From NCBI RefSeq assembly GCF_016026235.1, contig NZ_CP065613.1: DNA of 64,000 nt; one strand, written 5' to 3'. This DNA is from Escherichia coli (GTDB taxonomy: Bacteria; Pseudomonadota; Gammaproteobacteria; Enterobacterales; Enterobacteriaceae). Shown here in pieces: positions 15,766 to 19,217 of this stretch (the first letter of the stretch is position 1; every line of letters begins with the position of its first letter). The notes below the pieces were generated by a model that worked only from the letters and a program-made list of their open reading frames with translations, had not been told where the DNA came from and did no database searches. The position numbers were made by a program, and so were the translations under genes.

Positions 15766-17163
15766 TTATTGTTTATCCTGCATATACGGCGTGTACACCC
15801 CGTTCAGACTGTGCAGGAAAGCTACGATATCATCCACATCCTCCTGCGGCAGCTCTTTGCCTACCTGATAGCGCAGCATCAGTTTCACCGCCCCGTCCAG
15901 CGTCGGCACGTCACCGCGATGGAAGTACGGTGCCGTTAAAGCAACGTTACGTAAACCGGGTACTTTCTGACGCAATTTATCACGCTCTTCTTTAGTCACA
16001 TTCATACGACCAATATCCGCCGCCGTAATTTCCCCAAAGTTAAAGTCTTTTTTCAGCCCCAACGGTTCAAAGGAACGTCCACCGAGAATAATACCACCAT
16101 GACAAGTTGCACATTTATTATCTTTAAATAATTGATAGCCTTTTTTCTGTTGCGCCGTCAGCGCATTTTCATCTCCACGCAACCATTTATCAAATGGGGA
16201 ATCCGGCGTAATTAATGTTTTCTCAAATTCAGCAATGGCATCAGTAATATTTTCGCCACTGAAACCTTGCGGATAGACGCCGAGGAACTGCGCTTTAAGC
16301 TGCGGATCTTTTTCCAGCTTAGCAATAATTTCGTCCCAGGATTTCGACGCCATTTCAATCGGGTTCAACGGCGGTCCACCAGCCTGATCCTGCAATGTTG
16401 CCGCACGACCATCCCAGAACTGCTCAACGTTAAATACTGAGTTAAATACCGTCGGCGCGTTAATCGGCCCAACTGCGCCACCAACACCAATCGATGTTTT
16501 TCTGCCATCGACGCCCCCCGCATTCAACGCATGGCAATGAGCGCATGAAATGGTGCTATCAGCCGATAAACGGGGATCGTGATACAGCGCAAAGCCCAAC
16601 GCCACTTTTTGCGCATCGGTAGGCAGTTTTTGCGGGATGGGCTGCACCGGTTCATTGCGATGCTCCGGAGCAGTATCATTGCTGGCGTAATATTCCGCGC
16701 GCTGTTTTGCAATCCAGGCCAGTATTTCCGCCCGCTCTTCATCACTCACCTTACCCGCCCAGTGTAGCGCGGTATAACGCGTTGGTGGCATAGTTTCATA
16801 CTGCATCACCCATTCAATCTTATTCAGATCGCTTTGCGAAACGGGTTTATCAGCCAGCAGTGCCGCACGCACGGCCTCGAGGTTAAAAGATTTATATCCA
16901 AGCTTAATGTCGTAATCCATCAACTGTTTCGCGCCAGGAATATAATAATAGGCGGGTAATTCTGCCGAAGGCGTGTGGCAATAGTCGCATCCTTTTTCGC
17001 GGAGAAAGCCTAAAACCTTATTATTTTCACTGACAGCAGATGCCTGAACATCGGCCTGTTTACTGCGTTTATTATCGTGGTACCACACATAACCAGATAA
17101 CCCTAAATAGCAAATCGCGACGCCAGCCAGGCCGATCGCGGTAATACGTGAGACCATTTTCAT
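15766..17163 (-). CDS. yhjA: di-heme cytochrome c peroxidase YhjA
   Basis: 465-aa ORF with three CxxCH heme motifs visible (CDYCH, CAHCH, CATCH) and N-terminal TM anchor. Confidence 0.85.
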   Translation of the reverse strand: MKMVSRITAIGLAGVAICYLGLSGYVWYHDNKRSKQADVQASAVSENNKVLGFLREKGCDYCHTPSAELPAYYYIPGAKQLMDYDIKLGYKSFNLEAVRAALLADKPVSQSDLNKIEWVMQYETMPPTRYTALHWAGKVSDEERAEILAWIAKQRAEYYASNDTAPEHRNEPVQPIPQKLPTDAQKVALGFALYHDPRLSADSTISCAHCHALNAGGVDGRKTSIGVGGAVGPINAPTVFNSVFNVEQFWDGRAATLQDQAGGPPLNPIEMASKSWDEIIAKLEKDPQLKAQFLGVYPQGFSGENITDAIAEFEKTLITPDSPFDKWLRGDENALTAQQKKGYQLFKDNKCATCHGGIILGGRSFEPLGLKKDFNFGEITAADIGRMNVTKEERDKLRQKVPGLRNVALTAPYFHRGDVPTLDGAVKLMLRYQVGKELPQEDVDDIVAFLHSLNGVYTPYMQDKQ

Positions 17164-17270
17164 TATTCTTCCCTCACGGTGGTGAGTTATTGTGACCCAG
17201 AAAATTTTCCAGAATGCTGCAAACGTCTCTGCGAGACAAAGCCATCATAAAAAACAGTGAGATACGCTTT

Positions 17271-17284
17271 TTGATAGGAATCAA
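17271..17284 (-). promoter_or_regulatory. FNR-type box TTGAT-N4-ATCAA upstream of yhjA
   Basis: perfect TTGATAGGAATCAA palindrome seen about 110 bp upstream of the yhjA start codon; yhjA is known to be FNR-activated. Confidence 0.5.
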
Positions 17285-17537
17285 TCAATTACATGAATAT
17301 AAACTATCAATAAGATAGCCTGTGCCTATTACCCAGATCAGGAATGGCATATCATGATTGCGGCGAGAGCAGGATTGAATGTTCTGAAAATGAAAAACAA
17401 CACGAAATCCGTATTTTTATAAATTCCATGGATATTAGTGCGTTATATTTTTTGACAGGTTAATAAACGTGATCCACCGCACGCTTTGTCGCCCACCAGG
17501 CGGAGCGAATGACTACCCTTAAAGAAAAGCCCGATAA

Positions 17538-19217
<1,680 letters not shown>

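Follow-up and report, generated by a model that had tools for sequence, protein, structure and literature searches.

A conserved FNR box adjoining an OxyR-type array in the promoter region of the Escherichia coli cytochrome c peroxidase gene ccp

The window – the whole stretch of 64,000 nucleotides that was analysed – is a segment of Escherichia coli chromosome in which the divergently oriented genes ccp (yhjA) and treF are separated by an AT-rich spacer (37–42% GC) of 404 bp (17164–17567) that 5422 of the 5426 complete E. coli genomes share. An identical copy in strain ATCC 8739 carries the RefSeq annotation ‘ccp, cytochrome c peroxidase’, with treF divergent from it and with gadA and gadX lying beyond ccp. 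The ccp product has the Pfam domains CCP_MauG (1.9e-56), Haem_bd (4.6e-30), and Cytochrom_C (1e-11). The features of the spacer and its flanking genes are collected in Table 1.

Table 1. Coordinates of the genes and of the observed and predicted regulatory features in the ccp–treF region (window positions)
Feature	Position	Strand	Remarks
ccp (yhjA)	15766..17163	-	465-aa tri-haem cytochrome c peroxidase; ATG at 17163; regulated gene
Hairpin CTCAC-cacc-GTGAG, ccp 5′ UTR	17173..17186	-	3′ arm overlaps the Shine-Dalgarno sequence GAGGG (17175..17171)
Predicted ccp transcription start	17236..17237	-	G 17237 or T 17236; deduced from where the -10 lies
-10 hexamer TATGAT of the ccp promoter	17244..17249	-	Sequence prediction; 21 nt downstream of the box
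FNR box	17271..17284	.	TTGATAGGAATCAA; ccp strand TTGATTCCTATCAA; 10/10 consensus positions
IHF core-consensus match AATCAATCAATTA (WATCAANNNNTTR)	17279..17291	+	Overlaps the upstream FNR half-site; possible competitor site
OxyR-type site ATAGgcacaggCTATcttattgATAGtttatatTCAT	17293..17329	-	Three perfect tetrads and a weaker fourth; centre about -74
treF (cytoplasmic trehalase)	17568..19217	+	ATG at 17568; divergent neighbour; probably not controlled via the box

Read letter by letter, the spacer holds TTGATAGGAATCAA at exactly 17271–17284, and this is the single perfect match to TTGATNNNNATCAA (TTGAT-N4-ATCAA) in the 64 kb. Both half-sites are of the FNR type (TTGA/TTGAT) and not of the CRP type (GTGA). 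An initial annotation had described the box as an exact match to the FNR consensus half-sites ‘about 110 bp’ upstream of the yhjA start, in a spacer common to yhjA and treF, and all three statements hold: the ten consensus positions are all matched, the box lies upstream of the ccp ATG by 108 nt at its near edge and by 114.5 nt at its centre, and treF begins on the + strand at the far end of the same spacer.

Taken by itself, a perfect match in a 64-kb window is only modestly unlikely. Dinucleotide-preserving shuffles of the window contain a mean of 0.10 perfect TTGAT-N4-ATCAA sequences, with at least one in 10 of 100 shuffles (p about 0.1), and one-mismatch FNR boxes number 8 in the window against 2.97 expected. 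Because the bare match is only mildly improbable, the case for the box at 17271–17284 rests on its context.

Read 5′ to 3′ along the ccp strand, that context consists of the OxyR-type array, 8 nt, the FNR box (TTGATTCCTATCAA), 21 nt, and the hexamer TATGAT, after which about 7 nt lead to the G at 17237 and a 5′ UTR of about 74 nt extends to the ccp ATG. With the predicted -10 hexamer set at -12 to -7, the centre of the box (17277.5) would lie at -40.5, or at -41.5 with a start one nucleotide further downstream, and by this measure the box appears to occupy the position of a class II FNR activator site. Six sampled E. coli strains all carry the same hexamer. Upstream of TATGAT a -35 match is lacking, as is expected for an activator-dependent promoter, and it is because of this absence that a generic sigma-70 promoter scan of the spacer called no ccp promoter, its sole match being treF-proximal (17509–17538). 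This miss is not counted against the class II model, nor is it positive evidence for it. In a search for published start sites, yhjA (b3518) was not mentioned in the supplements of Kim et al. 2012.

The predicted 5′ UTR has structural features of its own. The hairpin at 17173–17186 is present in the minimum-energy fold of the ccp UTR, its stem is invariant and its loop variable in Escherichia, Citrobacter, and Pluralibacter, and it may serve as a translational or mRNA-stability element. A ‘terminator-like’ call on the + strand at the same coordinates was rejected, since no + strand gene ends there and the structure is the UTR hairpin overlapping the Shine-Dalgarno sequence. A short GC-rich inverted repeat, GTCTCgcaGAGAC, also lies where the ccp mRNA is predicted to begin (about 17225–17237, minus strand); at the same position in loci L005–L033 of the relatives described below the sequence varies by genus and the palindrome is often kept (GTCCatataGGAC, ATTGCacacGCAAT, GGCCAattTTGGCC, CGTCGCGggtgCGCGACG), and the repeat is missing in several Providencia. 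RNAalifold gave no consensus hairpin at the mRNA 5′ end from 14 sequences in a short and poor alignment, and the fold of the whole E. coli UTR favours pairing other than this inverted repeat (z = -1.8).

The array upstream of the box, 8 bp away, reads ATAG-gcacagg-CTAT-cttattg-ATAG-tttatat-TCAT. This is the pattern of the OxyR motif (ATAGnTnnnAnCTAT-N7-ATAGnTnnnAnCTAT, four elements at a spacing of 10–11 bp), with the fourth element, TCAT, agreeing at two of four positions, and on that pattern we regard the array as a putative OxyR site. The 26-nt core of three tetrads is matched with zero mismatches, and matches with at most one mismatch number 2 in the window versus 0.06 expected. A second perfect ATAG-N7-CTAT-N7-ATAG lies at 4958–4983 on the + strand, across the start codon of hdeD (ATG at 4970), and may be either an OxyR site or a chance occurrence.

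Relatives were collected by scanning a species-representative genome collection with the Ccp protein, which gave 41 loci. In almost all of the Enterobacterales among these loci a box with at most one mismatch lies 93–128 nt upstream of the ccp ATG; such boxes occur in Escherichia, Citrobacter, Providencia, Trabulsiella, Hafnia, Enterobacillus, Yersinia, and a MAG, and Pluralibacter, Entomohabitans, and Buttiauxella carry two-mismatch boxes in the same place. The N4 of the box varies among relatives, and includes TCCT, TCTT, ACTT, AATT, GAAT, AAAA, ACCC, AGTG, and AAAG among others. Thirty-six loci, drawn from about ten Enterobacterales genera, share the arrangement of FNR box, OxyR array, and -10 ahead of ccp, and a -10-like hexamer follows the box in each of them, at 21 nt in 22 loci, 22 nt in 12, and 23 nt in 2.

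Conservation is concentrated in the elements themselves. Among 11 genus representatives the mean pairwise identity is 0.87 over the ten half-site columns – a value inflated by the anchoring of the alignment on the best motif match – compared with 0.30 in the N4 and 0.31 in the 21-nt flank downstream, and the OxyR tetrads (twelve columns) are 0.92 identical between genera versus 0.47 for the positions between tetrads. The register of this alignment is valid because the OxyR tetrads fall in phase although they played no part in the anchoring, and because a motif-blind MAFFT alignment agrees with it, placing the boxes, the tetrads, and the -10 in shared columns with the remainder unalignable. The contact positions are conserved, the non-contact positions drift, and the place of the box in orthologous promoters is fixed, as in a phylogenetic footprint. 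The spacing between the OxyR and FNR sites is also fixed across genera, the sole variant being Providencia burhodogranariea (L018), in which a shift of 11 bp corresponds to one helical turn.

Almost all complete E. coli genomes (5392 of 5426) carry a 34-mer that includes the box, and the SNPs among the six sampled strains fall only between promoter elements. It is this context – the fixed gap to the -10, half-sites that are kept as the spacer between them varies, and presence in nearly every E. coli genome – that raises the box above chance, and the strong footprint, together with the predicted promoter geometry, agrees with its initial assignment as an FNR site serving yhjA.

Two loci depart from the common arrangement. 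In Providencia heimbachae (L023) the box is 233 nt from the ccp ATG compared with about 114 nt, with about 120 nt of extra AT-rich sequence in the 5′ UTR. E. coli strain fS54a (NZ_CM176577.1) has an IS5-like insertion of the ISKpn26 family within the FNR box (L048, about 300–310 and about 1500), with the junctions ...TTGATAG/GGAAGGTGCGAAC...CACCTTCC/ATAGGAATCAA. The insertion parts the two half-sites and leaves the OxyR site about 1.2 kb from ccp, and constitutes a natural promoter knockout in 1 of the 5426 genomes.

The dependence of ccp expression on FNR and OxyR comes from the literature. Partridge, Poole & Green (2007; Microbiology 153:1499; pmid 17464064) are cited for dual FNR/OxyR control of yhjA, and PMC4207228 gives both ‘FNR yhjA Activator Anaerobiosis’ among its literature-extracted relations (Table 4) and activation of yhjA by OxyR among RegulonDB relations. 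Later work renamed yhjA as ccp and reported that Ccp lets E. coli respire H2O2, and Ccp is induced by OxyR under hypoxia (PMC8115020). Binding of FNR in vivo at yhjA and treF was detected by ChIP-qPCR (Lemmens et al. 2009, PMC2690998), and the exact 14-mer is listed by Myers et al. 2013 (PMC3688515, Table S6) as the predicted FNR site ‘yhjA/treF’ at K-12 coordinate 3667319, with a PatSer score of 14.16 and ln p of -12.64. In their comparison of wild-type cells grown aerobically and anaerobically (Table S12) the ratio for yhjA is 0.50, which would make yhjA about two-fold higher anaerobically if the ratio is +O2/-O2 as in Table S11.

Anaerobic induction of yhjA through FNR, as first annotated, agrees with Partridge et al., as cited, and with PMC4207228; what the annotation missed is the requirement for OxyR, whose site adjoins the box. 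The K-12 yhjA promoter described by Partridge, Poole & Green (2007) is the same locus, with the same gene and the same regulators, and in these respects nothing of substance differs; between K-12 strain DH1 and the window one base differs in an aligned stretch of 156 bp, outside all elements. Control of yhjA by FNR and OxyR and the exact 14-mer are already known, and the finding is correct but ordinary. What is added here is a cross-genus footprint in which FNR box, OxyR array, and -10 are locked in phase as a single module across the Enterobacterales.

We conclude that the box very probably serves the ccp promoter as its class II FNR activator site and that, together with the upstream OxyR site, it forms a ‘no oxygen AND peroxide’ gate. 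In this scheme dimeric [4Fe-4S]-FNR would, without oxygen, occupy TTGAT-N4-ATCAA some 40.5–41.5 bp upstream of the ccp start, substitute for the -35 element, and recruit RNA polymerase via class II contacts, and oxidised OxyR on the adjoining four-tetrad site near -74 would co-activate from upstream. The analysis itself establishes the sequence, its geometry relative to a conserved -10, the conservation of FNR and OxyR elements together with ccp, and the identity of the gene, whereas the exact start (17237 or 17236) and the class II and upstream co-activator contacts are inferred. The promoter would fire only with oxygen absent or scarce and H2O2 present, which are the conditions under which Ccp allows H2O2 to serve the respiratory chain as electron acceptor. 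The box would in this way restrict Ccp, a periplasmic quinol:H2O2 oxidoreductase, to niches that are poor in oxygen and contain peroxide, for example the gut mucosa interface.

In class II FNR promoters the box lies near -41.5 (narG, nirB, dmsA) or, in yfiD, at -40.5. The ccp promoter resembles these in having a consensus box in place of a -35 element and 21–22 nt between box and -10, the latter being a prediction at ccp, but unlike them it depends on OxyR as a further activator, acting from upstream. In tandem-activator (‘class III’) promoters, ansB among them, FNR sits at -41.5 with CRP upstream. The likeness of ccp to the ansB type would lie in the pairing of a class II activator at about -41.5 with a second activator upstream on the same helical face, OxyR being predicted at about -74, and in the ccp module this spacing is either kept or altered by a single turn; unlike ansB, the upstream partner at ccp would be a LysR-type tetramer and not a CRP-family dimer. 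Activation sites ‘near -41.5’ are also noted in PMC3688515, and the ccp box differs from class II FNR promoters further in that FNR was not found on it in genome-wide ChIP-seq under fermentative conditions (PMC3688515).

That study counts the site among its 124 ‘silent’ predicted sites: FNR gave no ChIP-seq peak there in cells grown anaerobically in glucose minimal medium. No FNR peak coordinate lies near the ccp box in the table for the hns/stpA double mutant (Table S7), yhjA is absent from the table of fnr-dependent operons, a search by name matching Tables S6 and S12 only, and yhjA is not among the only five silent sites for which the authors state that FNR regulation had earlier evidence (PMC3688515). 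Neither yhjA nor treF is mentioned in the Fnr/ArcA ChIP-exo supplements of Federowicz 2014. Unlike most ‘silent’ FNR sites (PMC3688515), the ccp box has genetic and ChIP-qPCR evidence of function and deep conservation, which sets it apart as functional among the silent sites of that genome-wide survey.

The missing peak has two readings: a false negative, or growth without peroxide; or real masking that is relieved by oxidised OxyR. In the latter case the box would be a true but conditional FNR target, covered by H-NS and/or IHF, to which FNR binds only with oxidised OxyR adjacent. We regard this as possible, with the balance against it. The peak is missing, in a medium without peroxide, even though the consensus is perfect, and the box falls inside both a 5.4-kb H-NS region (3661953–3667384) and an IHF ChIP-chip region (3667035–3667586, Table S4) in an AT-rich spacer (PMC3688515), with the IHF core match lying on the upstream half-site. 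Against it, the ChIP-qPCR signal for FNR at yhjA/treF was obtained with no mention of peroxide (PMC2690998), and the authors of the ChIP-seq study allow that a missing peak could be a false negative (PMC3688515). The IHF motif, moreover, is found 3 times in the window against 2.77 expected, so that the match alone is not significant; as an explanation of masking it is kept as a hypothesis only. The match is retained in Citrobacter and Pluralibacter and not in Providencia. The fixed OxyR–FNR spacing, with its one variant of a single helical turn, is in keeping with masking but is also expected for plain synergistic activation, and the conserved helical phasing fits either cooperative loading or simple synergistic activation.

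Masking would refine the class II explanation, by deriving part of the AND logic from un-masking or cooperative binding, and would not replace it. The stronger form, in which IHF and/or H-NS keep the box unoccupied and the ‘no oxygen AND peroxide’ logic is OxyR-dependent un-masking or cooperative FNR loading, and not the action of two independently bound activators, we consider unlikely; if true, it would explain how a consensus site with proven genetic function came to score as ‘silent’ by ChIP-seq.

The initial annotation further suggested that the box could affect treF, with the same FNR dimer serving both genes from their common spacer, and this part of the annotation fares poorly: such bidirectional control is improbable. 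treF was a ‘high-confidence’ predicted FNR target that was positive by ChIP-qPCR (Lemmens et al. 2009, PMC2690998), but within a spacer of 404 bp ChIP-qPCR signals for yhjA and treF are inseparable; its +O2/-O2 ratio of 0.498 in the hns/stpA mutant (Myers Table S11, PMC3688515) stands right at the two-fold cut-off; and although treF is induced anaerobically in Shigella flexneri RNA-seq (log2 2.12), the table lists no fnr effect for it (PMC4229854). Measured from the centre of the box, the treF ATG is about 290 bp away and the sole sigma-70-like match, at 17509–17538, about 267 bp away, and the nearest -10-like hexamer on the treF side, found by reading the sequence, is 26 nt from the box in DNA that the OxyR site occupies. 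treF adjoins ccp only in Escherichia and Citrobacter, and in at least eight other genera the module follows ccp. Neither the distance of the site to the treF promoter nor its travel through the genera fits FNR regulation of treF, and a direct effect of the box on treF is unlikely.

That the box is a chance palindrome, or a site of another CRP/FNR-family protein such as CRP, is scarcely credible: one shuffle in ten yields a perfect match and many perfect or near-perfect E. coli FNR motifs are unbound (PMC3688515), but the half-sites are kept over about ten genera as the N4 varies, the distance to the -10 is fixed, the half-sites are TTGA and not GTGA, and FNR dependence is published, and on half-site identity and conservation both readings were rejected.

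Two observations concern other parts of the window. Two of the one-mismatch FNR boxes, ATGATAAAAATCAA (6411–6424) and TTGATACCTATCAC (6475–6488), lie 64 bp apart, and the former is the gadE site of Myers 2013 Table S6, which has an FNR ChIP-seq peak despite H-NS (PMC3688515); this bound site contrasts with the unbound perfect box at ccp. Going by the MG1655 coordinates of Myers Table S6, the dppF marker TTCATCCTGATCAA (window position 54760) should be about 4.9 kb closer to the ccp box (17284) than it is, so that the strain of the window appears to have, at some point between treF and dppF, about 4.9 kb of DNA more than K-12.
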